Below, in pieces: positions 7,319-61,606 of a stretch of 64,000 bases of DNA (position 1 is the stretch's first letter; every line of letters begins with the position of its first letter). The translations under genes were made by a program, and so were the position numbers. The stretch comes from a virus (taxonomy: Duplodnaviria; Caudoviricetes): the IMG/VR virus record IMGVR_UViG_3300028048_000086, positions 32,001 through 96,000 of that record; one strand, 5' to 3'. The notes beneath the pieces are model-generated. The model did no database searches, was not told the DNA's origin, and saw nothing but the letters and a program-made list of their open reading frames with translations.

Positions 7319-10300
7319 TCAGCTCGACATCCCGATGGCATTCGACACCATACGATTAATATGATATTGGCTGGCAGTAGATCCAATCGTACTGCTCATC
7401 GTGATATTTACTGATCCATTCTGCGGCGTCATTCCGGAAGCGGCATTCTGAATAGCTTCTACGGCTTTTTGCTGTCCCTGCGGAGAAGTAGCGTTGACAT
7501 TGATGACGTAACCACTATTCGGGCCTCCACGCATGACATTCAAGTTCGCATCAGAGAGCGATGGAGCCTGCTGCATCTGTGCTACTTGGCTTTCATCAGA
7601 CTGACCACTTTGAGCTTGATCTGCCGGGCCATGATCCGATGTAGAATTCATCGGACCAGAAACATATCCGGAAGTAAGCAATCCGCCGGCGATGCCGATT
7701 GCTCCGGCGAGAATCGGATTTCCGACATGTTCTGTCATTCCGGCAATGCCTTTGATAGCCTTCGCCACTCTATGAGTAGAAGCTCTAACGGCAGCTTCTT
7801 CGATTTCTTCTCTGCGTTTTAAAGCATTGTCTGAATTCTGACGAATGACATCGGCAGCTTCTCTTGCTTTTTCTGTACGAATATCGGCGGCGCTACTACG
7901 ATTTTGAGGAGCTAGTGCATCTTCGTAGATTTTAGAATCAACCCCCATGCTTTTCGCTTGTTGATTGACCATTTCTTCTGTGCTCGTTATGAGCGATTCA
8001 GAAGATCCGCCTTCAATTTTGTACTGGTCATAATCTGGGTTGAGACCATTCTTGGAGATACCGACACGCATTGCCGCACGGAAATTAGCGCTGTTCGGAG
8101 AAGTCATTGTCTCTACAGCGTCATGAACGAGCTGGGCGCCCATCGCGGCTTTCATGCCATTCGTAATTTCTCCACGATTAACGGAAGCAATTTCTTCGGC
8201 GTTCGCGGCGGCATCCTGTCCAAGTTTCCAGAGATAGAAGTCTTTTGCTTTCTCATATATCGGCGTATCCTTATCGAGAACGTTGGACGGTAAACGAGCA
8301 AGTTCTTTTCCGGTACGAGTACTTAAGAGATTATAGTACATCTCGCGAGCTTCATTCGCGACATCACTGACTTCTTCGCCTCTACCGCGTCTATTCATAA
8401 CACCGTAGATACGGCTATTCAATTTCGACAGCTCTTCACTTCGAGTCAAATCACCATGTTTCTCACTCTTACCCGTTAAGGTAGCTTCCTGAATCGCGGC
8501 TACAGTTGTCGTCGCGAGATTTAAGTAACCATGCGTATCTCGATTGCCTTCGAGATTTGCCATGGTGCGCATCCATTCAAAGATCGAAGTATTCAAGCTG
8601 CCAGCTGCTAGTTTCGAAGCATCTGCCTCGATCTTCTGATTAATCAGAGCAGAAGTCTTCGCATAATGCATGGACTCCAGCAAATCTTTCTGCGTGTCTT
8701 CCGTATACTTTCCGCTCGTCCGTACATAGTCGCTCATCGCTCTTAAGTAATCTGTGGATCCTTTTTCAAGACCTTTTTCTTCGGCGATAGGCGCGAAAGC
8801 TTCATTTAGTTTTTCATTTAACTTGGAATATTTCTTTTCTTCTTCAGGAGTGTAGACTCTGTCGAAATCAACGGAATGGCGACCATCATACGTGGCATCC
8901 CGAACAGAGTGCGTATCAAGATCATCCATACGAGGAGAAGCATCGCGGCGATCATCAAACTGGTTGAACGTAGCTGCTGTATGGATCGTAGAACCGATGG
9001 CGTCGCGGAAAGCCTTTCCTCCGTCATCGAGCTCGACAGATACGCCTTCCATTTTCTTGAGAGCTTTGTATCCGGCATAGTCAAGAGAATCCGTGTGGAT
9101 TTTCTTTTCTCCGATATTAATCGTAGCTCCGGAACGAACGACGAGAGCGTCGCCTTTATCGGAGTCAAAGTCACCTTTCTTTTGCATCCAGCCCCTGACA
9201 CCGACAAGAAGCTCATCATCTCCGACTGTATCATTGACGTATAAAGCACTCGCGGCGATAGAAGTATTCTGCTGAGCTGGTTGACGAAGAATATCGGAAA
9301 GAGTACCCGTCGTTTTAACTTCTTCCAGCGTAGCCTTCTTCAACTTCGTAGCCAAATCGGCATTGCCGCCGGTCAGTTCCATGAAGTAGTCGTCGTTGTA
9401 AATAGCCTTCGCAGCATTGTTACCAACGACAGCGTAAGAAAAGTTTAAAGCCTTAGAAGCATCTTTTCTTCCAACATCTGCCATTTTCGACAGGTTGACA
9501 CCTTGCCATTCCAGCTGCGAGAAGTTGCCATCCAGAGAACGCCATTCTCCATTTTCGGTAACGCCGCCAGCGAAATCATGTCCCTGAGCAGTCGCACGAA
9601 TAACGCCATCTTGGAAGTAAGCATTCGACGCTTTCTTGACAACGCCATCTTTGCCTGTCGTCAGCTGCGAGACATGTCCGACAAACTGGTCAATACTTTC
9701 CTGAATTTTTCCGAGAGCTTTTTCACGAGCGCCTTTGACGTCAGCATTTTGCTCGTAGTTATCACTATAATCACGATATTGACGCAAGAGACTAGCAATG
9801 TCACCTGTAAGAATGCCAGGACTCAGTGTGCCATCTTCTCTTTCGAAGATATCTTTCGTAAACGGAAGAGCTAAGTAGCGATTGCTTCTCTTGCCGTAGA
9901 TCTGAGCCTCTTCAGGAAGTTTGTCATCATGAAGATCGATCAGAAGAGGTCTGCCATAGAGCTGATTCGTAAACTCTTCCATACCAGAAGCTCTTGCCTG
10001 AGTATTCAAGTCTTTCAATGAAACGACATTGAATCCGAACTTCTGCATGTCATCGACGGTCAGAGTATTCTTTTTCTGATTAAACTTGCGAGCGACGGAG
10101 AAAGAAAACGCCATATTTTGCGCCAAGACTTTATCAGCCGTGATCTTTGTTGCGCCGGCTTTTTTCATGGTGCCAATGACAGAATCAATCTGTTCTCCTG
10201 TCATGCCTTCGTCAACTAACCTTTGGCGAGCTTTCTGAGACTCTTCTGTCAGCTGTTTATACTGAGGAGCAAATTCTTCTTTGCGTTCTTCCAGCGTCTT

Positions 10301-13300
10301 ATCATAGATACGATCTTCTCCATCCGTATAGAACTGATGAGCTTTAATCGTATCAACCAGAGATTGATCGATATTATCTCCGGCTTTTGTGCCTTTGACA
10401 AATCTCTCGTATAGTTCGTTACCTTTTTCTTCTCCGAGAGAATGAACAAGGCGTTGCTGAATCGTATTTACATAGTCTTCGTTGATTCTATTCGCGAAGA
10501 CGTTTGTCATAATACGCTCGTCAAGTTTCTCAGGCTTCTTGTTCTGACGAGCTGTATCCTTCGTCGTAATACGAAGCATATCTAGATTCTGGAGCTGCCC
10601 GCCACGAGACAATGCCGTATTCGAATATAGATATCTCTGACCGTATTTCTTGGCTTCTTCGTCATTCAGCCTCTGAACTTTTTCGAAAGAGTGAATCTCT
10701 CTTGCGTAGTCGTCTTTTCCTAAGAGCTCGTCTACGGTTTTTCCAGTACTAACTTCCTTTCCTTCCATATCGAATTTGCGATAATATCCGTTATCTAATT
10801 GCTCGATATAGCCGGTGACTTTCTTGCCGCCCTTTGATAGCTCGAAATACTTTTCAGGGCCTTCGCTCTTAAAGTATTTGTGAGCTATCTCATCGTACGC
10901 ATCCCAATCAATAGAACCGTGAGATAACGTAAACGTACCGGTTTTTTCATCAAGTTCAAGATCTGGGCGAACCTTCTTCATTTCACGAAGAATCTCTTGG
11001 TTCGACATGCCACGATCTTTCATAGCATAAAACATGCTTGAAAATGCGGTAGGATCTCCGTGCTTGATCTGTCCGGAGTAGTTGTTCATGACGCCCCAGA
11101 TATGCTGTCCTTCTTGCAGGGCACCGCTGGCCGTCATAACACGTTCGAGCAAGTCTGTCGCTCCATGCCGCTCCGTCATCATGGCATTCGCGAATTCTTC
11201 TATGCTGGAGAATGTTTTTCCAATCGTTTCCCGGATTCTCTTATCGTTCCAGCCACCATCAGTCATCGCATTGAGAGCGATACCGAACTTCGTCTTCGAG
11301 AGATCCTTCGGTGGATTCATCAGTTCCGTAATAAAGTCTGCCGTAACTTCTCTGCCAATTAGGTTCGTTGCCTTAAATTCCGTAAGGACTTTAGCGACTT
11401 TCCGATCTTTCTGCCCGAGACCGTTCATGATAACACGGCCCATCGTCTTCTCGTTATTATCCGAGACTTTGATGTTACCGGACATGTCCATGTCTTCGAG
11501 GAAGTAACGTGCTTTATATGTGTTGTTCGAATTGAAGAGATTCCAGACTCTTTCCTGCCAGCCTTCGCGGCTCGTATCAATCTTATCGAGATTCTCATTG
11601 ATGATTTCGCTGACTCGTTCATCCGACAGGCGCATACGATCCTGGAAGATTCCGAGGCGCAAGAATCCATTTGATTTTGCTAGAACAGGTTTTTCGCCTT
11701 CGTCGTAAGCGCCGAGAACGCTGAACAACTTTTCATCTTTTTTACGGAAGACACCGTTGTTAGAATGGAAATGAACGTTGCCTTCGCTATCAAGTTCGAG
11801 TTCCGGAGTAGCATCGCCGAGATTCGAGCGTTTCATAACAACGTCACGAGCATTGCTTTCAACGGCACGAACTTTATCGACATCTACCTGTTGCTCGTAA
11901 TAGCGATAGGATAGCATCGCATCAGCTGCACGAGAAGTAATTGCGCCAGCGCCTTCATCCGTCATAATTGAGGAAATGCGAGTAAATTCAGCGCTTTCTC
12001 TCGCTGATAGAGATAGAGCTAGAGCATTCGCGCCTTTATCGACGAGAATTTGAAAATCTCTCGTACTCGTAGAAAGACGCCTGCCGATAAACGAGTTTTC
12101 TACTTTATAGCCAATGCTTTTGCCAATTTCTTCGTTACGAGCAGACTCACCGACGGTGCGAATAAGATCTCCGGCCATGCCACCGATTGAATCAAGATAT
12201 TTCAGAGTATCTTCTGAAGCCCTGAAATAAGAAGCTCTCGCTTTCTTGTATTCGATGCCATTCGCACCAACATGGGCATTCTCACCGACATTCTGATTCT
12301 CTTGATAGATACGGTAGAAGCCCTTCGAAGAATGCGTTCCTAGATGACGAGTAAATCCGCGAATCTTGGAATAAACATCGGCATTCGGGCTGCCGTTATT
12401 AATAACTTCCTGTATTGCGTCTTCGAAGAGAGAACCGTGCTCTTGAATAGCAACGACCTGTGCCATCGTAAGATCGCTCAGACGTTTGCCGTCATAAAGC
12501 TCTGTTCCGTCTTTCATGTAAGCTTCATGGGATTTATCCATGAGCTCTTTCAGGATATTATCAGTATCTGAGCCAGTACCTTCGAATTCTTGGAAAGCCT
12601 TGGTATTTGAAAGTTCTCCCAGCTTCTGTACAATATCTCCTGCATAGAAAGATTGCGAAGTCAGGCGATCCTGCTTATTCTTGTCCAAGCTCGTAGAGAA
12701 ATCTCTCCACGTAGCGTTGAACTTGCTGAGAATATAATTGACACCGCCAAGAAGTTCGTTCTCGCCAGCTTTCCTTTCAAGAAAGTCTGTATGGAGAGAG
12801 GCCCCGACATTTCCGGCGGCCTTGCCCCATAATGAATTAACTTGGAGCTTCTTTTCACGGCTTCCTCTGTCGTAGAGGTTAAATAAACCGATAGGGTCTA
12901 CGCGACGAGTATTATTCTTGCCTTGGCGAATAAAGAACGCCCCGTCTTCATAGCGCTCCTTGGTGAAGAATAGCTCTTGAGACTTGCCAGCTTTAAAATC
13001 ATTGATACTGTTGTAGCCCCAGATTTTGCCAGTTTCTTCGTTGTAGCCGATGGCGCCGCCATTTTCATAGATTCCACGAACAAGATCGTGGACGACTTCG
13101 CGAGTATTTGCTCTCTTGATCTGTTGTCCTCTCTGCATGAGTTCAGCGCTCTCTTTCGAGTAGCCCTGAGCCATGAGATTCTTTACGAAGTCCTCGGAAT
13201 CTTCATGAGCGAACCCTGTATTGAATAGAATCTTATCTACGATATTATCGGCGATTTTATTCGTCGCGTTCTCGAATTTCTGCTTCGCAAGTTTCGGATT

Positions 13301-16300
13301 ATCTTTACTATACGAGAATGGGATGATTCCTAGCTTGTTTTTGCCGATACGATCAAGAGTCTCTTCAATCGTTTTCTTCGAGAGTCCTTGGTTTTTCTCC
13401 TTCGAATTTACGACATCATAAGTGCCGATAGGAGACAAGAAGCCTTTCGTCGGGTCTTTCTCACGAGCTTGTTCGAAGCCATGGAGAATCTTGCTCGTGG
13501 CAATATCCGTACTATCATTTGCCAAATCAACGGCATAGTCTTTATCTTCTTCAATGACATGCTTATCAACGAGAAACTTCTGGAAATCGCCGAGAATCTT
13601 GACTTGATTTTCCGGCGTGAAACTCTGAATCTGACGATCGTCGTAGCCCATCTCTTTTAAGAGAGTAGTGGCCATGCCCCATTCGCCACCATGAAGCTTA
13701 AAGGCTTTGATTCTACCTTCCGGAGCTTTGATGCCATTGAATCCGTTAAGATCAACTTCGAAGATATTCTCCATTTCGGAGGCAACACGATATCCTCTGC
13801 GCCACCCAATCGGAGCATTATTCAGTTTTGATAGCTTCGTTACACCTTCATTTGCCTGAAGAACTGCTTGTTCTTGAAGAGCTTGACGAGCATAGCGATA
13901 GTAAATCTTGAAGCTCTTGTCGCGAGTATTGTCTGTGCCGGACTGCTTCTTAGCGAAATCGAGTGCAGCCTGAATCAGACCGAAGTTACGACGGCCATAA
14001 TCTTCTAGCTGTGTCATGTTACTCGCAGTGTTCGAGTACATGTGCATGATGCCGTCGGATTCCCAACCGAAATATTTATAGAGAGTATCCTCAAAAGACT
14101 TCGCCGAAGGTTTATATTTCGGATTATTCGCGATTTCCGTCGCCGTACGTATCGTGCGATCCATCATCTCTTGAGTATATTTGCGACGATATACTTCAAG
14201 ATCAGAACCGGCGGCAGCTACCATATGAGGAGTATCTTCTGGCAGCCCCTGAATCGGACCATAGACTTTCGGGATTTCCTCATCCATATCGGAGATATAA
14301 CGAAGCAACCCGGCGTCTTTCGTGGCGTCGAGTTCTCTCGCTGCTCTAGCGGCCGCATCGTTATCAAACGCCAGCGTGCTTTGAGCTTTTAAGCCCTCAG
14401 CCGTAGGATCGATAATTTCGACTTTTCCCTTGGAATCTGTAGAGTAAAGTCGAAGAGCATTTCTCTCTTCTTTTTTCAAGTCATTAATAACATATTCGCC
14501 ATTCTCGTTGATATGGCCAGCGTATGACATATGACTCAGGCTGAGTCCGATATTATGCGGAGTACCGAATTTCCAAACATCGCTATTGGCGCCAATGGTT
14601 TCAGAATCAGAATATGGAGTTAAATGGATAAAATCTAGAGAACCGAAATCTAATTCAGGATGTGCTTCTATGATGGATTGATATAGTGGATTATCTCTAT
14701 CAATCCTGCCATTGCCCTGAAGAATGTAAAGACCGCGACGACGCTCGCCAGTTTGCTGGAAAAGTTCTTCTTTCGCTCCAGTTCCCGTGATAGAGACAGC
14801 ATCCGATGTACGGATAGTGCCATTCATTGGATCTCCGACGAATGTCAAAATGCCATCTTGGCGATAGCCAGAACGATTTGCGTAAAATACTTCCGTGCCA
14901 TTTGCGCTAAGTCGATCGGCGTCTTTCGGCAACTGATTGATAAGCGAATTCGGGTCATTCGGATTGAATAATCCAGTTCTATAAACCAGCGTCGCTGTTC
15001 CGATGGCGTCTTCTTTCGCGTTATGGGCACCGTTCTGAACTTTCGAGCCATTGATAAGTTCGAAAGCGTGAAGAAGAGCTTCCTGTGTCAGAGGCGTCTT
15101 GCCGGCTTCGCGCATCCATTTCATTTGCTGCGGAAGGAGGTCTTCGTGTCCTTTAAAAAGGTTCCGATAAAATTCAGAGCTATTTCCGACAGCTGCTCTT
15201 TCGACATGGAGATCGTCGAAAACATGATTGAACTTAATAGCGGAGCCGCCGAAGAGCTGATTGACTTCTTCTTTAGCTTTGTCGCTCATATAAGGCGACG
15301 TAGCAAAATAGCTTAAGTTGCGAATATCGAAGACTTCGGTGTTGTGGCCAATTGCTGTTAAGTCATTATCTACGATTGTATGAAGACCGGAAAGAAGTTC
15401 TTTTTCCCATCCACGAACACCGTCAACAGCCGTAGCTTCCTGCTGACGATAGATATCCGTATAAAGTTTGAGACCTTTTTCGACTTCTTCCTTCGAAAAA
15501 CGTATGTCTTCCTGCTCCGCGAAATTATCGAACGTGAAGATGCCTTCACTTGCTCTAGAAGTATTTAATTTCGTCTTCTCATTTCCAGCAAGAGCGAGAC
15601 GGTTCAGCGTAACCTTTTCATCGTTCGTGATTTCCTGACCGGAAAAATAGCGGCGCGAAATATCTTCGATACGCTTCCGCATATCATCGTTGATACCGAT
15701 GATAGAGCCATAAGTATGCTTGATTCCCGTAGAAGCATCGAAAGCGTTATTGGCGATGTCTCCTTGAACATGAGAGAAAGAAAACTCCGTGATGAACTGG
15801 CCTAGTTTTCTTCCGCCCTCATCGTAAGTAGCGCCAAGAGTTTCCAGATCCCATAAGACACTTTCACCGTTATGCTTCAAGATATTAGCGATACCTTGAT
15901 AAGCGGTCGCCGGTGTTTGTGCGACGTTATTCAAGATCCTCTGATAGAAGAGTCTCGGCGTCTGGTTCTTCGGTGATGTTACTGCTTCGATAAATGTATC
16001 TGGCGTGAGCTTCCCGTAAGCATTCTTGACAACTTGAGAAATCAGAGCTTTATCTGAGCTAGTAAGAGCCTGAATAGGTACTCCGATATGGCCGCCTTCA
16101 CCATATTTCGAGACAGTCTGAATTCTACCGGTAAAAATAGGCGCAATACGAGTGGAGAGAGCGTCAGAATCCATCTTGCGCAGATAATCATCAATGAGAG
16201 CGTTCTTTTCTTCCGCGCTCAAACTGTCAATATCATTGACTTCTCTCGTTACTTGCTGGTGTACTCTCCTATTTTTCTCTCTAATCTCTGCTTGTCCACG

Positions 16301-16339
16301 GACGTACGCAGCTACGCTGTCTCCTTCGTATATGCTCAT
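7319..16339 (-). CDS. 3006-aa candidate virion-packaged single-chain RNA polymerase with N-terminal DEDDh exonuclease domain
   Basis: Exonuclease: VLWDLETLG / IGHNTEVFDI / AHNAKED. Beta-like: MTDEGAGAIT and GNIKVSDNNEKTMG. Beta'-like: ILRQPAQ...KGDFDSD (DxDxD near 9158-9172). Located among tail genes. Confidence 0.7.
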   Translation of the reverse strand: MSIYEGDSVAAYVRGQAEIREKNRRVHQQVTREVNDIDSLSAEEKNALIDDYLRKMDSDALSTRIAPIFTGRIQTVSKYGEGGHIGVPIQALTSSDKALISQVVKNAYGKLTPDTFIEAVTSPKNQTPRLFYQRILNNVAQTPATAYQGIANILKHNGESVLWDLETLGATYDEGGRKLGQFITEFSFSHVQGDIANNAFDASTGIKHTYGSIIGINDDMRKRIEDISRRYFSGQEITNDEKVTLNRLALAGNEKTKLNTSRASEGIFTFDNFAEQEDIRFSKEEVEKGLKLYTDIYRQQEATAVDGVRGWEKELLSGLHTIVDNDLTAIGHNTEVFDIRNLSYFATSPYMSDKAKEEVNQLFGGSAIKFNHVFDDLHVERAAVGNSSEFYRNLFKGHEDLLPQQMKWMREAGKTPLTQEALLHAFELINGSKVQNGAHNAKEDAIGTATLVYRTGLFNPNDPNSLINQLPKDADRLSANGTEVFYANRSGYRQDGILTFVGDPMNGTIRTSDAVSITGTGAKEELFQQTGERRRGLYILQGNGRIDRDNPLYQSIIEAHPELDFGSLDFIHLTPYSDSETIGANSDVWKFGTPHNIGLSLSHMSYAGHINENGEYVINDLKKEERNALRLYSTDSKGKVEIIDPTAEGLKAQSTLAFDNDAAARAARELDATKDAGLLRYISDMDEEIPKVYGPIQGLPEDTPHMVAAAGSDLEVYRRKYTQEMMDRTIRTATEIANNPKYKPSAKSFEDTLYKYFGWESDGIMHMYSNTASNMTQLEDYGRRNFGLIQAALDFAKKQSGTDNTRDKSFKIYYRYARQALQEQAVLQANEGVTKLSKLNNAPIGWRRGYRVASEMENIFEVDLNGFNGIKAPEGRIKAFKLHGGEWGMATTLLKEMGYDDRQIQSFTPENQVKILGDFQKFLVDKHVIEEDKDYAVDLANDSTDIATSKILHGFEQAREKDPTKGFLSPIGTYDVVNSKEKNQGLSKKTIEETLDRIGKNKLGIIPFSYSKDNPKLAKQKFENATNKIADNIVDKILFNTGFAHEDSEDFVKNLMAQGYSKESAELMQRGQQIKRANTREVVHDLVRGIYENGGAIGYNEETGKIWGYNSINDFKAGKSQELFFTKERYEDGAFFIRQGKNNTRRVDPIGLFNLYDRGSREKKLQVNSLWGKAAGNVGASLHTDFLERKAGENELLGGVNYILSKFNATWRDFSTSLDKNKQDRLTSQSFYAGDIVQKLGELSNTKAFQEFEGTGSDTDNILKELMDKSHEAYMKDGTELYDGKRLSDLTMAQVVAIQEHGSLFEDAIQEVINNGSPNADVYSKIRGFTRHLGTHSSKGFYRIYQENQNVGENAHVGANGIEYKKARASYFRASEDTLKYLDSIGGMAGDLIRTVGESARNEEIGKSIGYKVENSFIGRRLSTSTRDFQILVDKGANALALSLSARESAEFTRISSIMTDEGAGAITSRAADAMLSYRYYEQQVDVDKVRAVESNARDVVMKRSNLGDATPELELDSEGNVHFHSNNGVFRKKDEKLFSVLGAYDEGEKPVLAKSNGFLRLGIFQDRMRLSDERVSEIINENLDKIDTSREGWQERVWNLFNSNNTYKARYFLEDMDMSGNIKVSDNNEKTMGRVIMNGLGQKDRKVAKVLTEFKATNLIGREVTADFITELMNPPKDLSKTKFGIALNAMTDGGWNDKRIRETIGKTFSSIEEFANAMMTERHGATDLLERVMTASGALQEGQHIWGVMNNYSGQIKHGDPTAFSSMFYAMKDRGMSNQEILREMKKVRPDLELDEKTGTFTLSHGSIDWDAYDEIAHKYFKSEGPEKYFELSKGGKKVTGYIEQLDNGYYRKFDMEGKEVSTGKTVDELLGKDDYAREIHSFEKVQRLNDEEAKKYGQRYLYSNTALSRGGQLQNLDMLRITTKDTARQNKKPEKLDERIMTNVFANRINEDYVNTIQQRLVHSLGEEKGNELYERFVKGTKAGDNIDQSLVDTIKAHQFYTDGEDRIYDKTLEERKEEFAPQYKQLTEESQKARQRLVDEGMTGEQIDSVIGTMKKAGATKITADKVLAQNMAFSFSVARKFNQKKNTLTVDDMQKFGFNVVSLKDLNTQARASGMEEFTNQLYGRPLLIDLHDDKLPEEAQIYGKRSNRYLALPFTKDIFEREDGTLSPGILTGDIASLLRQYRDYSDNYEQNADVKGAREKALGKIQESIDQFVGHVSQLTTGKDGVVKKASNAYFQDGVIRATAQGHDFAGGVTENGEWRSLDGNFSQLEWQGVNLSKMADVGRKDASKALNFSYAVVGNNAAKAIYNDDYFMELTGGNADLATKLKKATLEEVKTTGTLSDILRQPAQQNTSIAASALYVNDTVGDDELLVGVRGWMQKKGDFDSDKGDALVVRSGATINIGEKKIHTDSLDYAGYKALKKMEGVSVELDDGGKAFRDAIGSTIHTAATFNQFDDRRDASPRMDDLDTHSVRDATYDGRHSVDFDRVYTPEEEKKYSKLNEKLNEAFAPIAEEKGLEKGSTDYLRAMSDYVRTSGKYTEDTQKDLLESMHYAKTSALINQKIEADASKLAAGSLNTSIFEWMRTMANLEGNRDTHGYLNLATTTVAAIQEATLTGKSEKHGDLTRSEELSKLNSRIYGVMNRRGRGEEVSDVANEAREMYYNLLSTRTGKELARLPSNVLDKDTPIYEKAKDFYLWKLGQDAAANAEEIASVNRGEITNGMKAAMGAQLVHDAVETMTSPNSANFRAAMRVGISKNGLNPDYDQYKIEGGSSESLITSTEEMVNQQAKSMGVDSKIYEDALAPQNRSSAADIRTEKAREAADVIRQNSDNALKRREEIEEAAVRASTHRVAKAIKGIAGMTEHVGNPILAGAIGIAGGLLTSGYVSGPMNSTSDHGPADQAQSGQSDESQVAQMQQAPSLSDANLNVMRGGPNSGYVINVNATSPQGQQKAVEAIQNAASGMTPQNGSVNITMSSTIGSTASQYHINRMVSNAIGMSS

Positions 16340-16459: not shown

Positions 16460-19400
16460 TTAATTCGCTTGCATCTGAAGACTTTGATTAACACGTTCCT
16501 GGACATCTTTCATTCCGAGCATCGTCTTAATCGATGCTTTTATCGAAGTAGCTCCGCCGGATTGGCCGGCCTCGACGGAGATATCAACGTTCTTCAAGCC
16601 TTGTCCTTTTAGTATCTTTTCGATACGGTTTTTGACGGTCGTAGAATTATGATCTTGCTTATGTATATCCTGAATCCGAGGAGCATTCGCTACTTCCGGT
16701 TTATCCAGCTCAGATTCATAGAATCCGAAATCGCCTAATTGCAGTCCTTGATTCACAACACTCTGGACTTCAGAATTCTTCAGGTCATACTGCGGAGCCC
16801 ATCCAGCCCAGTTTTCCTGTGGAAGAGCATGCTTCTTGAAATATGTTTCGTTATCTACTTGCTTATCTTCTTTCATGCCCCAAGCCATTTTGAGGGCCCG
16901 ATTCAAGAACGGAGATACTTTATTCAGGATTTCCTCTCGACGAGATTTATTACGCTCCTTGACAAATTCCATGAAATACTCGCGGTCTGTCTGCGGAAGT
17001 GCCGTGATAATCTGTGACCACGTAGCATCTTCTTTTAAGCCGTACATCGTATTTTCTGCCGCTTGCTTATAAAGCAGGGCAGTACGTGTCCATTTACCAC
17101 CTGGAACAACGAGTTTTTCTCCTTCGAGGTCGTTGATACGGCTCGTGAGCATACTCGTCAGACGATCTCTTTCTTCACTTTCAGGAGCAGAACGAACAAG
17201 ATCTTTTTTAAGAGACTGGAAGTGTTTAATCGCGAGACGATTCTGTTTGGTCGCTTCTTCTCGACGTTCGATGACATCTTCGATATCGACGTCTTCTTCA
17301 TCTTTCGCTTTTTTGGCGGCTTTCTTGTAGAGCCCCATGAACTTGAGATATGTCAGGCGATCATAGTAATCCTGCATCTCCCATTTCTTTTTCGTTCTTT
17401 GAGGTACCCATTCGCCGTTTGGATTCGTAGCCGTACGATATAATGCGCCTACGGCAGCACCTATCAAAGCACCCTTGCCTCGGCTCTTCTTAAAGAAACG
17501 AGCAACTTCTTGCCCGACATTCGCCGCAGAAAGTGTTTCATCGGCGTAACTATTGCCTCCTGTAAGAGCGTGGCCTAACGTAGAAATCGCACTTCCATGA
17601 CGAGCCCATTCCATGGCTTTCTTGGAGTTACCGAGATACAGTAGCTGAGATAAAGCCGCTCCGATAAATGCACCTCGATCAGAAAGAAGATAAGCCGCTC
17701 CGATTCCGTGACGCATGCCAGGAGATAACCCTTCAATTTCTTCTGAAATACGATAAGCTCCACCGATCAATCCCGTAAAAGCTGAGCGATCATGGAAAGA
17801 ACGCTCCAATGCAGGACGCAAGAACGTCTCAATTGGATGAGACCAAGTCTGATAAGGAGTGCCGTAAACTTGCTCTGCTTCATAAGATTCTAGCGGAGAA
17901 CGAACTCTCAAGAACTGGTCAGAGATCCACGGGAGATCCAGGTGAGCGATAAATTCAGAAGCGTAGGCTACACCTTTTTGAACGACGCCCATATCGCCAA
18001 GAACTGCCGGGGTGCTATTATCGCTTTTACGAATCGCGGCATCGCCGGCGGAAATCATCTGCTTTCCGACATTTTGTCCGTCGATGTAAACAGCTGCGTT
18101 GATACTACCGATAGAATCATTGTTCGTCTGATTATCCGAATCTTCGTCAACGGCAACAGTAACTGTTTGACCAACGTGAATATATCTACCGAGAACATCC
18201 TTCATGGATTCATTCGGATTTCCTCGGACACTCGCACCGGCAATCTTGAAGATAGAGTTGCCACTACGGAACTTGCCGTATCCAAGAACTTCAGAAACGA
18301 CGACATTCTTATACTGTAATCCGTGTCCTACGACTTTATAATCGTAGAAATCATGTTGCTTGCCTTGCTGGTTAACTCTCTGACGAATCTCGCTCATCTC
18401 ATCGATGAGTTCAGGATCCGTAACAGTCTTCTTAGCGATGTCTCTCCACATCTTATATTCAGGAGAAAAAGGAGCGATATCCGCTAGAATTTTCATTCTA
18501 TCAAAAGCACCGTATTTTCCTCCGAATTGATCAGGGTGCAGTTGATTCAGACTTTCGTATCCTTTACCAGGTAAACGCATTTCTCCTTTCGGCACGGCCG
18601 TAAACGGATCACCATAGCGGAAACGATCTGGGAGCCAATCAGGCATCTCATTCATGAGAGGATTGATACGAGTATTACGTCGATAATCAGGAATAAAACG
18701 ACGCATGATTTCTGCGGCTGGGCCGCCGAGACCGCCGAGATTCTCATCCCAAAAAGTACGGCTAAATGAAGTGATGTCTTGTCCCGTCGCGATACGTTTC
18801 TTATTATCGACACCGAACCCGGTAGCCTCGCCGACACCATAACCGTAAATACCAGCTATTAAGCGCCAAGAAACTGCCGCATTCTGAACGAACGAAGAAC
18901 CTTTACCTTGATTAATCAGATCCGTAACAGTATCAGGATCATTTAATAAGTTCATGGCGTCGACTGGACGATAGTTTTTGAGTTTCAGCCCCTGAGCCAT
19001 TCCTTCTTCCGCATCGATTTCGTCCTGAGACATCGTGCGAACGTTCTTTCCGGCCTTCGCTTTCGTAGCATCATTCATTTGACGAAGCCAATTTGCCGGA
19101 TTATGATCTCTCAGTATATTTTCGAGGTCTTCTTTAATACCGAGAGTATCGCCTTTCGTTAAACGATTAATCTCTAGACGATCTGCGTCATATAGATGTC
19201 GAGCATTTTTATTTACCGGTTGCCCATCTTTATCAGCGACGTAAGAATCTTTCCCGTCAGCTTTCTGAACGACGTAATTCTGTTGGTTCGGGACTGGGCC
19301 TCCGAAAACAGCGTAATCAATCGCTTCTTTCCAACCGATATGATTATTCTGGTTAACCGTTTCAAGAGCATCAGCAGCTGATTTTCCTCCCGTGAGAGAA

Positions 19401-27774: not shown

Positions 27775-27775
27775 G

Positions 27776-50052: not shown

Positions 50053-51264
50053 TCAGCTCCTTTTCGTTTTCTCGAGGATATGAGCATAGCGGCGATAAAT
50101 TTCGCTGTTCGTATCCATTTTCATCTCTTTCTCTTCTTCTGTCTTCTTCCACTTGCCTTCGTGCTTCTCGATAATTCCCGAAATAATGGGATCGAGATGT
50201 TCTGGATGAAGACTCTGAATCTGAAGGCAGAGAGAATATATAGAATCAGCGATACCGCCATTCCGGAATACACGATTTAAATAAGCTCCCGTATGGCATT
50301 CTTCCGGCTGGACGATAACGCGAAGAATCGCTTTGAAAATGGCGACTTTATAGTTTTTTCGAACGATATACGTCACGAAACTCTCGTCAGCGCCGAGTCG
50401 CCGCATATAGTCCATCAAAACTTCCCACGAAGGAGTGTCATCTTGATCGATTGCCTTGACATTCGGCTTCTCGAAGAACATCGGGCGCTCCTTCGTCGGC
50501 ATAATCGAGATGTCGAAGTTATATCCGTCGATTCTCTTGCTGCCGGCGGCCGTCGTCGAGGAAAAATCAGTGACACGAATCTGAGAATAAACGTTTTTAT
50601 TGATATCTTGAATCGCTCGTTTCAAGACTCTTTCCTGATAATTTCCTTTCGTCATGTGAGTCGCCGGAGGAACGATCTTCACGATATCGTCATAAGATAC
50701 ATGAATCAGATATTTAGAACCGTACTCGTTATTCTGCTGACGCATTTCGTAGATCGTAGCTACGATCCAGTTCGTTAGGGAGTAAGAATACTGAGATTTC
50801 GAATTCAGATAAAATTCAGCCGGTATTTGAAGATCAGGGGAGGACGCGACGAAATTTCGATAATATTCTTCGTATCGAGGATTTACTTCGATATGGATTA
50901 CGCCGTCATCATTGATACGGATATAGCTATACATCGCGAATGCGCCGACAGTCGTTAGTTCTCCTTCTCGATAGCCGACGATTTTCTGAGCGAAATAGTT
51001 ATCTGAAAGAGTTTTGACGGCTTCCGCGCACTGCTTGACAACATCCCGTGGGCGCTTGCCGCGAAGATGTGCGATGGTCGCTGTATCGATATCGAGAGAT
51101 AGATTATGCTCGTCTCGCTTGACAGCTTCTTGAATACTCTGCTGAATGCAGACGATGATATACATCTCACCTTTATTCAGAGATCTATTGGGAATTGACT
51201 TTGCGAGGGGAGTATCGTACCACAAAGAAAGCTGTTCCGTTCTTGCCGCTACCTCTTTTGCCAT
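50053..51264 (-). CDS. Plasmid-type replication initiator (Rep_3/RepB-like), 403 aa
   Basis: KSQYSYSL...VSYDDI...YQERVLKRAIQDIN...GSKRIDGYNFDI fits the Rep_3 winged-helix pattern; ATG 51264 has a GAAGGAGGT RBS (better than the track's TTG at 51324); iterons adjacent. Confidence 0.8.
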   Translation of the reverse strand: MAKEVAARTEQLSLWYDTPLAKSIPNRSLNKGEMYIIVCIQQSIQEAVKRDEHNLSLDIDTATIAHLRGKRPRDVVKQCAEAVKTLSDNYFAQKIVGYREGELTTVGAFAMYSYIRINDDGVIHIEVNPRYEEYYRNFVASSPDLQIPAEFYLNSKSQYSYSLTNWIVATIYEMRQQNNEYGSKYLIHVSYDDIVKIVPPATHMTKGNYQERVLKRAIQDINKNVYSQIRVTDFSSTTAAGSKRIDGYNFDISIMPTKERPMFFEKPNVKAIDQDDTPSWEVLMDYMRRLGADESFVTYIVRKNYKVAIFKAILRVIVQPEECHTGAYLNRVFRNGGIADSIYSLCLQIQSLHPEHLDPIISGIIEKHEGKWKKTEEEKEMKMDTNSEIYRRYAHILEKTKRS

Positions 51265-51295
51265 CTTTCTCAGACCTCCTTCTATCTCGGATACT

Positions 51296-51324
51296 AGCGT
51301 ATCATTCGATGAAGGATTCGTCAA
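51296..51324 (-). promoter_or_regulatory. SigmaA-type promoter for rep
   Basis: TTGACG-17 nt-TACGCT with TG extension; an iteron copy lies immediately upstream (51328-51339). Confidence 0.6.
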
Positions 51325-51327
51325 CGC

Positions 51328-51672
51328 GCGAAAAATGTATAAATAGAAAAATACGCCGAAGCATCTACTTACGTATCTAGTATAGAATCGTATCTTACTA
51401 ATTTATCAGGAGTGAGCTATTAGAATAGAGTCGGCCGAGCGCTCCGCGAAGCCGCGCCAGCTCTAGCTCCGTCTTTTACATTTTTCGCCTTGATTTACAT
51501 TTTTCGCGGCGTATTCTACATTTTTCGTCGGTATTTATACATTTCTCGCGTCTCGATAGAGTTATTTTTACGTTTTTCGCGTTACCTGTGGATAAGTAAG
51601 TGGATAACGTGGATGAAACGGCGAAAATACTGTGGATAACTGCGTTCTTTCTTCTAGAACACGAAAAATGTA
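51328..51672. repeat. Iteron-type replication origin with DnaA boxes
   Basis: TACATTTTTCGC-like repeats at 51477, 51496, 51517, 51538, 51569; inverted copies at 51328 and 51661; DnaA boxes TGTGGATAA at 51587 and 51631, one-mismatch box at 51599. Confidence 0.85.
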
Positions 51673-51693
51673 TAAATAGGTCAAAAATATTTT

Positions 51694-55264: not shown

Positions 55265-55515
55265 TCTTCAAATCATCCCTTTCTCTTATATACTTATTTC
55301 TCTCTTCTACCAATTACCATTACCCCTCTAAAAACTTATCCTTTCCACCCTCATCTACGAAATGTAAAAAGCCTATAGAGAAGCGAAAAATGTAAAAATT
55401 CTCCTCGAGTACTAGGTAAGTATGAGGAAATCTTTGAACGAGAATTCGAGCCCCCGGGTAAGGTTCTCGCCGAAATTACCTCGTGCCAATGGCATTCAGT
55501 GCCATTTTTTCAATG

Positions 55516-57163: not shown

Positions 57164-57323
57164 AGCGATTGTTTTCTATCCATTTTTGACGATTTTTCAG
57201 TATTTCGTCCATCGTGTCGCCAACGAAATCGACCTCGGCATTTTTTTCGAGTTGGAATTCAATATATTCGTTGATCATGTGATAGAAATCTATAATCCAT
57301 TCTTTTAAAGTCATTTTGTTCAC
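57132..57323 (-). CDS. Small counter-oriented hypothetical protein (63 aa)
   Basis: AT-rich ORF filling an intergenic gap, directly downstream of a sigmaA-type promoter. Confidence 0.5.
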   Translation of the reverse strand: MNKMTLKEWIIDFYHMINEYIEFQLEKNAEVDFVGDTMDEILKNRQKWIENNRFRRRYYQEKR

Positions 57324-57332
57324 CTCGCCTCT

Positions 57333-57361
57333 ATTTTACTTCTTTTGAATAGGGGCGTCAA
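57333..57361 (-). promoter_or_regulatory. SigmaA-type promoter (leftward)
   Basis: TTGACG-17 nt-TAAAAT on the - strand. Confidence 0.65.
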
Positions 57362-57451
57362 TTGTCTTCGCTCTCCTTGGGGGAGGCCAGACGTTAAAGA
57401 GGCCGTTGAAGTGTTTTTGTATAGACATGAATTCTAAAGGAGGAATATATC

Positions 57452-59611
57452 ATGTCGAACATCAATGAAATCGCCGATGTCCAGGAATCGGCCTACCGCG
57501 TTGTTGCGTGGGAGGCGAAGAAGTTCAACAATCCGTCCATCGAGGCGGATTATGAGAAGCTTGCAAAGATGCGCGGCAAGCTCGCTCCAACCACGACGCT
57601 CGTCACGAGTGATCAGGTAGAGGAGCTTATTACTCCGTACCTGCTCGCTAACCGTGTCTCCGTGGATACGGATGACGAAGGGCGTGAAATCGTCTCCGAT
57701 GATGCATCGGATGACGATGCCAAGGCTACGGGCCAGCTCGTAGCCACGAAGCTGTACCTGGATAAAGATGCCCATGTCCAGCGTACGCTGGCTCCTATCC
57801 CGTATAACCGTGTATCCCGCTATCTTCCGAAAGAAGAAGCGACGGTTCATACGGGAACAGGCGAGTTCGTTACGCGTGTAAGCAATTACACGCAGTTCTA
57901 CCTGGTCTTCCAGCTTACGGGAGCTGATGATCAGTATGTGCTCGACCGCGAGATCTACCGTAAGGTAGGCACGGACGAATTCTATTGGGAGAACGAGTTC
58001 GATCAGCTCGTTAATATCGTCACGGGGGAGCTCGCGACGATTGACGAGCTGGGAGAATGCCTCGTGTATAACTCCCGTAAGATGCCTGGTCAGGAAAATC
58101 TGACGGCAGGCGAGAAGAAGAGCTACACGATTCAGTTCGTGTGCTCGAACTTCGGAAACATCAATGTCCGTGCGTTGAAATACGTGCTGACGTACGGTGC
58201 ATCCGAGCTTCTGGCCGCGACGCCGAAGACGAGCCAGAAGGATCTGGCTCAGAAGAGCAACCGTTTGGCGCAGTACATGGCTCCGAATACTTCGGGGACA
58301 TTCTTGCATAACGTTTGCTTTTTCATGGGCAAGATCAAGGACGATGACGGCAACGAGTACCGTGACGGCTTCGCTTTCGTCTTGGACGAAGCGGTGCGCC
58401 ATTGCTTCGTTGTCTTGAGCAAGGGCATGTTCGCGATCTCTAAGAAAGCTTGCCAGGGCCTGGCCATCCAGATGCGTCCGTGGCTCTGCAAGCTGGAGAG
58501 CGAGTCGGTATCCGAGGGATACATGGCTCGCTTCCTGGAACTGCGTCATGCTCTCGAAAATGCCGTGTTCGTGTACAGGGACGCGGTGACGGAAGAACAG
58601 CAGGAAGCGTTCAACGAGGCTCTTGAAAGCAAGGGCAAGAAGGGCGCTTTCGCCGGCAAGTTCGTTTTCATCGCTGATCATGAAGGTGATTGGGATGAGA
58701 ACGAAGTTCCAGAGTTCTTCACGGATATCAATGGCCTGAAGGCAGAGTTCGATCTGAAGATGGGATCTACCTTCAATATCTTGTCGATGAGTCATCATAA
58801 GTCGCACAAGAACGGTGCTCACTTGAGCACGCAGCTTGTGCAGTCGATGATGATCTTCGATTACGAAGCCACGAAGAAAGTCGTCGCTCGTCATATGGAG
58901 GCGTACGTCGCCGACAAGTTTGGCGAGCTGATGAACGGCACGGGCAAGACGCCGACCGTTCAGGATGTCGAGGGTTCGCTGAAGGGACAGCTTCTCGCGA
59001 AGCTCTGCCCGGCGGTAACGACAAAGTACTATTTCCCGCTTCTCCGTTCAATTTCGAACAAGACGATGGAGGGAATGGTGCGTGTCGCCAATAACCTGAG
59101 CATCCCGACTGAGGGGGCGTACCAGAAGCTCATGGTGGATCCCGCCATGGACTTCGGCGTACGCATCTTGAACGTCACGAAAGACGCGACGAGCAATGGC
59201 ATCCTCGAGGTGCTGGCTCCGACCGTCGAAGTGACGTGCCGCGGCATTATCGTTAAGTATCCGAAGCAGCACTTCGGAGAATACGGTAAATGCCATGTCG
59301 TCTCCGTCGCTGATTATATCGCTCGTGTCAAAGCGTGCGATGAACTCAGCGAAAATGACAAAGCACTCCTCATCGAGAAGGTTCGTCGCCTCTCGAAGGG
59401 AGTGCTTTGCGTGCCGGCAGTCGCCGAAGTCAAAAACATGCTTGCGGGCATGGATTTTGACGGTGACGCGGTCATCCTGTTCCTTGATAGCGGTGTCGTT
59501 GCCGTGATGTGGAAAGGCGTTCCCATCGCTGTCTGCATCGACGAGAACGACGCTGGCATGCTCTCGGAAGAAGAGTATGCTGCTTATAAGGAGCAGATCT
59601 CGAAGAAGTAA
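57452..59611 (+). CDS. YonO/RdRP-like two-barrel RNA polymerase, N-terminal catalytic part
   Basis: RDGFAFV, IQMRPWLCK, LSTQLVQSM, VKYP, LAGMDFDGDAV (DFDGD at 59453-59467) in the order expected for YonO/QDE-1-like enzymes. Confidence 0.8.
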   Translation: MSNINEIADVQESAYRVVAWEAKKFNNPSIEADYEKLAKMRGKLAPTTTLVTSDQVEELITPYLLANRVSVDTDDEGREIVSDDASDDDAKATGQLVATKLYLDKDAHVQRTLAPIPYNRVSRYLPKEEATVHTGTGEFVTRVSNYTQFYLVFQLTGADDQYVLDREIYRKVGTDEFYWENEFDQLVNIVTGELATIDELGECLVYNSRKMPGQENLTAGEKKSYTIQFVCSNFGNINVRALKYVLTYGASELLAATPKTSQKDLAQKSNRLAQYMAPNTSGTFLHNVCFFMGKIKDDDGNEYRDGFAFVLDEAVRHCFVVLSKGMFAISKKACQGLAIQMRPWLCKLESESVSEGYMARFLELRHALENAVFVYRDAVTEEQQEAFNEALESKGKKGAFAGKFVFIADHEGDWDENEVPEFFTDINGLKAEFDLKMGSTFNILSMSHHKSHKNGAHLSTQLVQSMMIFDYEATKKVVARHMEAYVADKFGELMNGTGKTPTVQDVEGSLKGQLLAKLCPAVTTKYYFPLLRSISNKTMEGMVRVANNLSIPTEGAYQKLMVDPAMDFGVRILNVTKDATSNGILEVLAPTVEVTCRGIIVKYPKQHFGEYGKCHVVSVADYIARVKACDELSENDKALLIEKVRRLSKGVLCVPAVAEVKNMLAGMDFDGDAVILFLDSGVVAVMWKGVPIAVCIDENDAGMLSEEEYAAYKEQISKK

Positions 59612-59692
59612 TTCTATCGAGATACTGATATGTTAACACTGTTAAGGGGGGGCGTCAAGCCCCCCTATCCATGTTATAAGGAGGAATTTATC

Positions 59693-61606
59693 ATGGATAA
59701 CGAAAACAAAGAGCTGCTCGGTCTCAACCTCGGTCACGATGACTTCATCAATGCGTTGGTGAATAAAAATCCTGGTCCTGGCCAGGTCATCAATGCTCAT
59801 CGCATTTTCGCGGCTATTTACGCGATGGCTGACGAGGAACCCAAAGCTGCTAAAATGGCGCTGGATAAGATCTTCGGCATCGGGAAGCGCGGTGAGCATT
59901 ACGTCTCGCCGATTCCACCGATGGTCGTGCGCGAGAATCTCACGATCAAGAACGTGAGTTTCTCGATGGTCCACGAGGCCGTCGAATCGGCACGCAAGGC
60001 TGAATTCTCCTCCGTGGAAGAGATGAAGTCTTGCGCCGATGACTTCACGACATTCGCGAGAATGTTCAGTGAAGCAGTCATTGATGCTGCTAAGAAAGGT
60101 GGCATCGTGCCAATCGAGTACATCGATGCGCTCCGTTCAGCTGTCAAGCCGGAAAGCCTTCTTCATACGGAGAAGTCTTTCAATGCCGAGATCAACTGGA
60201 TGACGGATAAACCCGCTCGTAAGGGCTGGGTCCGTCATCAGGATTCGAAAGCGAAGGGTGCGGTTGATGTCCTCTGCCAGCAGAAAGGTAAGAATCCTTA
60301 CCGTTTCGTCGCCAAGGAAAACAGCACACAGCTCGTGCTCGAAGATCCTTGGCATGAGCTTAGCGTCGATTGCTTGAATAAGGCAGTTGATGGTTACGCG
60401 GCGAAAGTTACGGAACTGGAGCCGCATCTGTTCTCGTATTTCGTAAAGGCGGTCGCTGATCGTCGTGCGGAAGATATGAACTTCGATGCTGTCTGTGTCA
60501 TCGCGTCCAAGCTCTGGGCACAGATGAACCGCACGATCACGTCCAGCATGACGGCAGAGAAATCCGCCATCGAGACGACGGACAAGGATCAGAAACGCGC
60601 CGAGGAACGTGCGATCACGGCTCGCTATCGTGAGACGTATAACGCTCTCGGCAACGAGATTCGCCGTCAGTTCGGCCTTTTGAAGTCGAATGATATGACG
60701 GAAATGGCTATGGTTAACGCCGTAGTTAACGCCGCGTATCATGACGAGGAAGGTAAGCTCCTCGACGATGTTTCCGCAACCAACTTCGCGGATAACGTCA
60801 TCGGCGAAGAGTTCTTCTCCTGGCTGAAGAAGCACCTTCTTCATAAAAAGGAGAATGTCACTGAGGAGGCTGTCGAGCCGCTGATCGGCTGTGACTTCGA
60901 AGAAGGATCCGAGATCGTATTCAAAGATTCTTTCGCGGAGAAAGACGGTCATTACGCCATGGCGGAACGTCCGAACGTCAATGGCTCGTATGTCATCAAG
61001 AAAGTTGGTGGCAAATGGGCGGCTACGAAGAAGATCGATGATATCGTCGAGTCATCGATTGACTTCGTAGAGAATCAGGTCATGTTCATGACCTCTTCTA
61101 CGTCGGAAACGGAAGAACGTCTCGTCGCGATGGCGAAGGCGGCTTCCGTGAAAGGCGCGAAAGTCACCTTGGTTCACAATACTAAGGTGAATGGCGTCCG
61201 TCAGGCTATCTTCGTTGATGGCAAAGCGTATGGCCGTTATGCCAATGCTTACGCTGATCTTTCCAAGAAGAAGGATCGTGAAGCAGCGAAGAAGCTCGGT
61301 CTCGTCATGGACAATGTCTACGATCTCGTTCAGGGTGACCTGAAGGATATCAAGATGATGTCCTATCCGGACGAACATGGCCGTAAGCATGCGAAAGCCG
61401 TCGTCGTTCTCGAGAACGTGACGAAGATTGCGTGGAACAAGGTTCCGAAGTTCAATGGTTGGGTTCCGGTCGAAAAGAAAGTAGTTAAAACGGCGAAAAC
61501 CGTTAAGACGAATTTCTTCGCGGCTAAGAAGCCGGTCGTAAAAGAAGAGCCGAAGAAAGCTGCTAAGAGCGATAAGCTCGTCAGCTTCTTCGCCAAGTAT
61601 CACTAA
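59693..61606 (+). CDS. YonO/RdRP-like RNA polymerase, C-terminal part
   Basis: Own AAGGAGG RBS and ATG 59693; PGQVIN and FSEAVIDAAKKG correspond to the post-catalytic IG..xN and AVDxxKtG motifs. Confidence 0.7.
   Translation: MDNENKELLGLNLGHDDFINALVNKNPGPGQVINAHRIFAAIYAMADEEPKAAKMALDKIFGIGKRGEHYVSPIPPMVVRENLTIKNVSFSMVHEAVESARKAEFSSVEEMKSCADDFTTFARMFSEAVIDAAKKGGIVPIEYIDALRSAVKPESLLHTEKSFNAEINWMTDKPARKGWVRHQDSKAKGAVDVLCQQKGKNPYRFVAKENSTQLVLEDPWHELSVDCLNKAVDGYAAKVTELEPHLFSYFVKAVADRRAEDMNFDAVCVIASKLWAQMNRTITSSMTAEKSAIETTDKDQKRAEERAITARYRETYNALGNEIRRQFGLLKSNDMTEMAMVNAVVNAAYHDEEGKLLDDVSATNFADNVIGEEFFSWLKKHLLHKKENVTEEAVEPLIGCDFEEGSEIVFKDSFAEKDGHYAMAERPNVNGSYVIKKVGGKWAATKKIDDIVESSIDFVENQVMFMTSSTSETEERLVAMAKAASVKGAKVTLVHNTKVNGVRQAIFVDGKAYGRYANAYADLSKKKDREAAKKLGLVMDNVYDLVQGDLKDIKMMSYPDEHGRKHAKAVVVLENVTKIAWNKVPKFNGWVPVEKKVVKTAKTVKTNFFAAKKPVVKEEPKKAAKSDKLVSFFAKYH

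Follow-up and report, generated by a model that had tools for sequence, protein, structure and literature searches.

A split two-barrel RNA polymerase and a predicted Rep_3-type iteron replicon in a genome fragment of an uncultured jumbo myovirus related to Bacillus phage 0305phi8-36

In Bacillus phage 0305phi8-36, orf99 encodes a putative DNA-directed RNA polymerase (RNAP) of the RdRP family, and 14 phage-specific promoters accompany it (Hardies et al., PMC2147016). Its product, gp99, was called YonO-like by Iyer et al. (PMC7824862). This phage is lytic (PMC3357382), and pBtic235 is a circular jumbo prophage (PMC9700832). Here, a 64,000-nucleotide (nt) stretch, referred to as the window (bases 32001-96000 of one 117,973-bp contig, an IMG/VR virus record), was analyzed. 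It belongs to an uncultured jumbo myovirus of the 0305phi8-36/pBtic235 lineage, and the subjects are an RNAP split over two open reading frames (ORFs), a predicted iteron replicon, and a giant protein of 3006 amino acids (aa) encoded in the tail block.

Two further systems are close to this arrangement. In the temperate Bacillota phage SPbeta, prophage induction turns on yonO, whose product, a two-barrel RNAP of the single-subunit type, then transcribes the late operon (PMC5467207). YonO is one chain of 839 aa, whereas the two chains of the window enzyme add up to 1377 aa, and its structure is nearer to QDE-1/RDR2. Thermus phage P23-45 carries gp96, a virion RNAP fused to the tape measure, and gp64, a non-virion RNAP (PMC10770324). 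Likewise, the window has a giant protein with a conserved DFDxD motif in the tape-measure slot and a separate two-barrel RNAP. However, P23-45 is a lytic siphovirus with its RNAP at the N-terminus of the tape measure, no exonuclease domain, a one-chain non-virion enzyme and no plasmid replicon, and the giant protein of the window is a putative counterpart of gp96 by motif and slot. This closest precedent was missing from an earlier preliminary description of the window, which had listed phiKZ/AR9- and N4-type phages and SPbeta. The overall scheme is a variant of 0305phi8-36 gp99, the pBtic235-type phage-plasmids and the two-polymerase scheme of P23-45.

The plus-strand ORFs at 57452..59611 and 59630..61606 encode proteins of 719 aa (p719) and 658 aa (p658), the second ORF starting after 18 nt. 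p719 contains an invariant DFDGD at residues 668-672, in which D668, D670 and D672 form the metal triad, together with the basic residues R342 and K347. These five residues and Q340 were each conserved in at least 90% of the relatives compared (74-139). The structure of p719 was predicted by AlphaFold2 (AF2) with a 74-sequence alignment at a predicted local distance difference test score (pLDDT) of 89 and a predicted template modelling score (pTM) of 0.87; a run with only five sequences gave a pLDDT of 35 and was not usable.

The p719 model matched Neurospora crassa QDE-1 (Foldseek E 5.9e-11; VIA Z 17.3 over 427 residues, root-mean-square deviation (rmsd) 4.1) and RDR2 (Foldseek E about 1e-9; VIA Z 16.3). 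Matches were also obtained with gp66 of the crAss-like phage phi14:2 (Foldseek E 3e-6), the gp96 RNAP of P23-45 (E 0.047; Z 12.6) and P74-26 gp62, a homologue of gp64 (E 6e-3; Z 11.8). Residues 550-692 aligned with the catalytic barrel of cellular Rpb1 (VIA Z 9.5, rmsd 2.1). The fold of p719 is therefore that of gp66 and QDE-1, but gp66 is a 2180-aa virion protein, whereas the window enzyme lies in the non-structural module on the strand opposite to the virion genes.

The relation between the two ORFs was defined by a profile hidden Markov model (HMM) built from 62 single-chain (fused) forms. p719 occupied profile positions 87-689 (E 1e-145) and p658 positions 701-1234 (E 4e-66), directly after p719. 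By BLASTP, p658 matched the C-terminal halves of single-chain relatives of 1100-1500 aa, for example residues 727-1341 of P0019 (E 2e-21), and it carries the conserved RMxxExxIDAAKxG motif. Because p719 and p658 are collinear on the profile of the fused forms, they are halves of one ancestral enzyme. Thus, the two ORFs are collinear halves of a genuine two-barrel RNAP of the QDE-1/YonO class with a predicted fold, p719 being the N-terminal half with both barrels, and the separate split YonO-like RNAP of the preliminary description was upheld. The region that follows the catalytic site, corresponding to the predicted bridge helix, is present and collinear in p658, judging from the profile alignment.

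No match was found for p719 and p658 in Pfam, PHROGs, NCBIfam or PDB sequence searches, and the PDB result remained null with a 74-sequence profile. The PF05183 (RdRP) Pfam model matched neither p719, p658 nor eight fused relatives, and a six-frame search with it was also negative. A tblastn search of the phage collection with p719 found nothing, and two word-index protein searches yielded only four relatives. In the ESM atlas, neighbours of p719 at a score of 0.96 carry PF05183, although only 16-50% of the members do so. When the family profile (A1) was run in a full HMMER search, 365 relatives were detected at E <= 1e-3, both split and fused. Similarity to YonO itself was weak: it matched the fused-family HMM in three collinear domains (E 1.7e-4, 1.4e-3 and 0.067, in a search of five sequences), and hhalign gave E 1.2e-3 at a probability of 19%, so that sequence similarity alone is not significant.

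Some of the relatives are forms of 640-750 aa that stop just past the motif, and others are single chains of 1100-1500 aa; 58 of the 148 library matches stop within 120 residues of the motif. A syntenic 124.6-kb IMG/VR contig, G001, was used for comparison. Its polymerase consists of 680 and 728 aa, is cut at the same profile position, and has a half that is 27% identical to that of the window. Other relatives are cut slightly differently, into 751 and 540 aa or into 673, 326 and 304 aa. Since G001 is cut at the same point and other relatives are split as well, the split is not an assembly error. On the evidence of these comparisons, the split after the predicted catalytic DxDGD loop is old and conserved. 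Unsplit homologues are found in 0305phi8-36 (1246 aa, matched by profile A5 and probably gp99) and in four of five tested related plasmids (1282-1409 aa).

The confirmed part of the system is little new in kind, as YonO/RdRP-like polymerases of this lineage were described in 2007 and 2021 and jumbo plasmid prophages are known. A natural split of the polymerase just past the catalytic loop, and a large, mostly unannotated family with 365 representatives, appear not to have been described in the literature consulted. With such a split, the assembly of a minimal two-barrel polymerase could be studied in a natural system of two pieces.

Iteron replicons of the P1, F and pSC101 type (Rep_3, RepA/RepE) place the initiator gene behind direct iterons of about 20 bp, with inverted copies at the promoter and with DnaA boxes. 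In copy-number control of the P1/F type, inverted iterons that overlap the rep promoter and an additional iteron at a distance are typical features. The same elements were found in the window. A 423-aa Rep_3-like replication initiator is encoded on the minus strand at 50053..51324, 6 nt upstream of the terminase gene terL. It matched Rep3_N at E 1.5e-4 with 22.6 bits, which only narrowly exceeds the Pfam cut-off of 22.4. No PHROG, NCBIfam or PDB match was obtained for Rep, and no tblastn relative was found in the plasmid collection (PLSDB).

The 369-bp gap upstream of rep (51325..51693) is origin-like. Seven copies of CGAAAAATGTA with at most one mismatch lie at 51329-51672, within 350 bp, compared to 2.4 expected in the whole contig. 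Five of them are direct copies spaced about 20 bp apart with CGAAAAATGTA as the core; the other two are inverted, and one of these abuts the -35 element of rep. Two perfect TTATCCACA DnaA boxes at 51587-51639 are the only ones in the 118-kb contig, and near-perfect boxes are present besides. One exact (55384) and one degenerate extra iteron were located on the plus strand at 55352..55394, in the divergent control region 3.7 kb from the origin. Therefore, the claim of a Rep_3/iteron/DnaA-box replicon held with a borderline Rep match, and the fragment carries a predicted Rep_3-type iteron replicon. It differs from the P1, F and pSC101 replicons in that Rep reaches only the Pfam threshold, the cassette lies inside the packaging operon, and no partition genes adjoin it.

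In G001, terL is directly followed by the homologue of ORF 51694-52647, and no Rep homologue is present. Apart from this cassette, G001 is gene-for-gene syntenic with the window, which indicates that rep and the origin were inserted as a cassette just upstream of terL. In 0305phi8-36, no replication initiator is annotated in the stretch upstream of terL. A relative whose p719 is 82% identical has a 406-aa ORF at the same position adjoining terL, and the rep-ori region is kept in related strains from sheep-gut and wastewater runs of other studies, as shown by contigs compared over 46500-58000.

The contig is classed as linear and 46% complete by CheckV, and it has no terminal repeat. It is about half of a roughly 250-kb genome, and the wording of one genome in the preliminary description did not hold. 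The placement in the 0305phi8-36/pBtic235 lineage is based on the capsid, the sheath and the giant neighbours, which match the 0305phi8-36 group; a crAss-like identity was rejected on the same grounds. The major capsid protein is 49% identical to that of Moorella phage MTATph1 and 37-41% identical to the 0305phi8-36 group. Furthermore, related capsid genes are carried by 20 circular plasmids (185-260 kb; identity 38-44% for most of them) whose hosts are Bacillus, Paenibacillus, Cytobacillus and Clostridium baratii; among them is the 235-kb pBtic235-type plasmid of B. thuringiensis israelensis. Matching DNA was found in bovine, sheep and pig gut and wastewater sequencing runs of 13 studies, and the livestock gut is the origin of this phage.

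Besides the capsid, sheath, gp145 and hub, the contig shares with 0305phi8-36 a candidate class of phage-specific promoters and a giant gene in the same slot. It differs from that lytic phage in that gp99 is unsplit and the tape measure gp146 lacks both the DxDxD and the DEDDh motifs described below. The circular prophages found in Bacillus, Paenibacillus and Clostridium baratii, pBtic235 among them, live as plasmids; they have related capsid genes and, in four of five tested, a single-chain YonO-like ORF. Their replicons are different, given that the Rep of the window has no match among them by tblastn in PLSDB, and they have no homologue of the 3006-aa protein.

A plasmid state maintained by host RNAP had been proposed, and circularity, parA/parB and an integrase were to be checked. 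In the 118-kb contig, no match was obtained to the Pfam models for ParA (CbiA), ParB (ParB_N) and tyrosine integrase (Phage_integrase). In related elements, a ParM gene lies upstream of terL in a Paenibacillus plasmid, and a relative with a giant protein 38% identical to that of the window (P0008, ENA ERZ27256887) has genes for ParA (RHH_3 and CbiA) and a ParB_N-like protein between its 2190-like and 3006-like giants. These partition genes and the circular plasmid relatives support a plasmid life style of the clade. Thus, the proposed plasmid state is backed by circular plasmid prophages of the lineage and by ParA/ParB in this relative, while the contig itself is linear and gave no partition match.

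The preliminary description reported clear sigmaA promoters for rep and for leftward transcripts and none obvious for the rightward operon. Good sigma-70-like sites were confirmed at 57361 and 56213, both directed leftward, and none was found ahead of 57452. The rep promoter, TTGACG-17-TACGCT, has a weak -10 and was absent from the promoter-scan list. How lytic induction would start without a virion had been left as a question; it is answerable because yonO of SPbeta is switched on at prophage induction (PMC5467207).

Eight copies of CCCCTyATAwAACT, all on the plus strand and within 6.5 kb, were observed beyond the window at contig positions 96568-103018 (window-equivalent 64568-71018). Each precedes a small ORF with a ribosome-binding site, and there is no -35 element. 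By analogy with the 21-bp class in 0305phi8-36, this motif is a candidate promoter class for a phage polymerase. Neither the CCCCT motif nor any repeated early-region word was found in G001.

A 1.1-kb segment of the control region, 56202-57314, is skipped in the contigs of sheep-gut and wastewater relatives and behaves as a variable module. It holds a 96-aa ORF, a 176-aa ORF with HExxH and a weak match to the DUF6782 metallopeptidase, and a leftward ORF of 63 aa that has a good sigma-70-like promoter.

The 3006-aa protein is encoded on the minus strand at 7319..16339, in the slot of the tape-measure gene. The preliminary description had read it as a giant RNAP-like protein among tail genes; the ORF is real and lies in the tail block. 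The order of chaperone-like ORFs, gp145 homologue (16460-23032), 3006-aa gene and hub/lysin giant (1-7212) is that of 0305phi8-36, where gp145, gp146 and gp147 follow each other and gp146 is the assigned tape measure (PMC2147016). Six relatives were identified; each has about 3000 aa and lies between the same pair of giant genes. The C-terminus resembles gp146 in layout only, with a G/A-rich hydrophobic segment, a Q-rich linker and GYxINV (BLAST E 2.4). Similarly, alignment of the BtI1 and BwK1 counterparts with gp146 is confined to the last 60 residues (Hardies et al., PMC2147016).

Two sets of motifs in this protein were invariant among relatives down to about 27-28% identity. The first, encoded at 15008..15850, comprises D164/E166 (ExoI DxE in WDLET), D338 (ExoII D in FDI) and H439/D444 (ExoIII H-x4-D) in the order of a DEDDh exonuclease. 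Models for exonuclease families (RNase_T/PF00929 and other Pfam entries) gave no match to the protein, even at E 10 or in six frames. Residues ~150-450 at the N-terminus are read as a putative, active-looking DEDDh exonuclease (DnaQ/RNase T-like). The second set is D[FY]DSDK at aa 2390-2395 (9155..9172, minus strand), a candidate metal-binding triad of D2390, D2392 and D2394, which are invariant in the seven family members. R2352-x-P2354 lies 38 residues upstream, and the R-to-D spacing in P23-45 gp96, counted by hand, is likewise 38. Other invariant motifs are K2230-G2232 and A-[IL]-Q-E-x-x-L-x-x-K at 2615-2624. By chance alone, a sequence of 3000 residues would contain about one DxDxD, and the motif also occurs in three further large proteins of the window.

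No search linked the 3006-aa protein to a polymerase. It had no match in Pfam, PHROGs, NCBIfam and PDB by sequence or profile, a PAP_NTPase match at E 0.018 being not significant. In the ESM atlas, the best score was 0.85 to unrelated small proteins, and the same atlas did recognise p719. Searches against p719 and the fused polymerase family by hhalign and hmmsearch found nothing, as did six-frame searches with PF00623, PF05183 and PF00929. Comparison with the gp96 RNAP domain by hhalign and Smith-Waterman scored no better than shuffled sequence. Both halves of the protein lacked a tblastn homologue in the phage and plasmid collections, and BLASTP against MTATph1 CDS0027 was negative. These nulls are weak evidence, because p719 was equally invisible in PDB sequence searches. 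Only short motifs thus point to a polymerase identity, and the RNAP-like character of the earlier claim goes no further than they do. An injected RNAP for the rightward operon, as had been proposed, found no backing in any profile, atlas or alignment search. A survey of homologous phages for co-occurrence of the modules had also been suggested: 0305phi8-36 and four of the five plasmids have the YonO-like enzyme without a tblastn homologue of the 3006-aa protein, and therefore an injected polymerase is not required in the lineage.

The giant protein and the polymerase half are both only 27-28% identical in G001, and the structural neighbours are 45-80% identical. Both genes are fast-evolving, and the two could co-evolve.

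The same 27-bp palindrome, GAAAAAGTsTAACsGTTAGAC..., occurs at 16363-16389 upstream of the 3006-aa gene and at 7257-7283 just downstream. The copies thus lie in the two gaps flanking the gene, each just after a terminator-like hairpin; no further copy exists in the contig and none in G001. The palindrome could be an operator, a hairpin promoter, a processing site or a cassette boundary.

Overall, we consider it probable that the window comprises the structural arm, the control region and the start of the replication arm of a jumbo myovirus with a split polymerase and a plasmid replicon. Host RNAP would express rep, the leftward control transcripts (57361, 56213) and, by some promoter, the polymerase genes. 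The split polymerase would then read phage-specific promoters for middle or late genes, for which the CCCCTyATAwAACT sites are candidates; the late-gene role is suggested by the analogy with YonO in SPbeta and by the proposal for 0305phi8-36 gp99. The Rep/iteron/DnaA-box unit would let the genome replicate as a low-copy plasmid prophage, like the plasmid relatives. The 3006-aa protein is best read as a tape-measure-slot protein that would leave the tail first, with the putative DEDDh exonuclease as cargo. Several points weigh against this scheme. No promoter of any kind, sigma-70-like or other, was found for the polymerase genes, and the CCCCT motif is absent from G001. The ordered invariant motifs of the giant protein (K2230-G2232, R2352-x-P2354, D-x-D-S-D-K and A-[IL]-Q-E-x-x-L-x-x-K) suit a catalytic barrel with a bridge helix better than a plain tape measure. 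As to the life style, the Rep3_N match is borderline and Rep lacks a relative in the plasmid collection, 0305phi8-36 is lytic, and an iteron origin can equally serve lytic replication; the missing ParA, ParB and integrase matches weigh little in a contig of this completeness. Some of these points are shared by an explanation in which the phage is strictly lytic and the Rep/iteron/DnaA-box unit is a lytic origin or a selfish cassette. It would agree with the terminal repeats of the lytic 0305phi8-36, with a 118-kb contig free of partition, integrase or recognisable repressor genes, and with a rep cassette that is absent from the syntenic G001 and lies among mobile elements such as the terL intein and the tube-region homing endonuclease. 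However, the contig covers only half of the genome, many relatives are circular plasmids, and a clade relative has ParA and ParB in its tail block. Copy-number control is typically marked by inverted iterons across the rep promoter and by a remote iteron, and DnaA boxes couple initiation to the host cycle. A strictly lytic phage is therefore regarded as somewhat unlikely.

The identity of the giant protein matters more than the confirmed part, and two other explanations were weighed for it. In the model of the preliminary description, it is a virion RNAP fused to the tape measure, which would be injected and would transcribe pre-early genes including the split polymerase as the non-virion RNAP, as in P23-45. 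There, the virion RNAP lies within the tape measure, was found only by its DFDGD motif and is otherwise unlike known RNAPs, and a second, non-virion two-barrel RNAP is present (PMC10770324). The tape-measure slot, the invariant D[FY]DSDK with R-x-P at the gp96 spacing, and additional invariant motifs whose order suits a beta'-like barrel with its bridge helix argue for such an enzyme, as do the polymerase genes without a preceding sigma-70-type promoter and the low identity of both giant and split polymerase in G001 relative to the structural neighbours. The active-looking exonuclease domain also suggests an enzyme rather than only a ruler. Against this, none of the searches (Pfam, PHROGs, NCBIfam, PDB, ESM atlas, hhalign, hmmsearch and Smith-Waterman) found a link to any polymerase, a protein of such length should contain a DxDxD by chance, and the motifs were picked after the fact. 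Furthermore, gp146 and the MTATph1 counterpart lack DxDxD, yet 0305phi8-36 has a YonO-like enzyme. We therefore regard injection of such a polymerase as unlikely. The full version of this proposal, a tape-measure-slot virion RNAP of a contractile-tailed, plasmid-forming phage with its core in the C-terminal half, an N-terminal DEDDh 3'-5' exonuclease and a cascade with the split polymerase, is equally doubtful. If it were true, tape-measure-fused virion polymerases would have arisen more than once, and the P23-45 strategy would have a second, independent example, for the first time joined to a nuclease and to a temperate life style. A virion polymerase of this type could then occur in a phage that also persists as a plasmid prophage, and could be linked with an exonuclease. 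Alternatively, the protein may be a length-determining tape measure only, with enzyme motifs that are chance or structural. It shares with gp146 its position, a hydrophobic segment in the C-terminal part, the Q-rich linker and the terminal GYxINV, and tape measures are fast-diverging proteins (PMC2147016), in line with 28% identity in G001 compared to 47-49% for the neighbours. This explanation is improbable, since four lineages with 27-38% identity all retain the five DEDDh residues of the three motifs, the segments around residues 2340-2415 are conserved and non-helical-looking, and gp146 has no such motifs.

The minus strand bears a myovirus morphogenesis operon that comprises, in order, a large terminase containing an intein, the portal, protease and capsid, the sheath and tube paralogues, chaperone-like ORFs and three giants of 2190, 3006 and 2840 aa. 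The major capsid protein is encoded at 37283..38539 (minus strand; Pfam Phage_capsid_4). The tail sheath at 30018..32954 (minus strand; phrog_16991, E 2e-57) identifies the phage as a myovirus. The 2190-aa virion protein (16460..23032, minus strand) is the gp145 homologue by tblastn, with eight records at 27-31% identity and E down to 8e-74, and gp145 of 0305phi8-36 is a virion protein by mass spectrometry according to its database record. The baseplate hub/tail lysin giant (1..7212, minus strand; phrog_20474, E 2.6e-181) has 2840 aa in the full contig and is cut by the window edge. Its position is that of gp147, and by annotation it corresponds to CDS0032 of MTATph1. On the plus strand, a Dda-like SF1 helicase of 631 aa in the full contig begins at 62602 and runs to the window end (62602..64000; Pfam AAA_30 and UvrD_C_2; phrog_325, E 3e-78).

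The large terminase gene (47008..50046, minus strand) encodes an intein that carries a LAGLIDADG endonuclease (Pfam Intein_splicing, LAGLIDADG_3 and Terminase_6N). The terminase of G001 has 588 aa, which leaves no room for an intein. Between terL and the portal gene, 43690-46860 holds a 1056-aa ORF with no family except a short DUF434 match, and its G001 counterpart has 759 aa.

In the tail-tube paralogue region, 27842-29936, the ORF has only 175 aa compared to 228 aa at the equivalent place in G001. It is followed by a LAGLIDADG/phrog_4645 endonuclease ORF (28388-29269) and a long ORF-free stretch. This layout is consistent with an intron-split tube gene. Finally, in a further relative, L012, a 526-aa staphylococcal nuclease (SNase) gene lies at 19371-20951 between the 3006-like and hub-like giants, which recalls the SNase domain reported on the BtI1 hub protein (PMC2147016).

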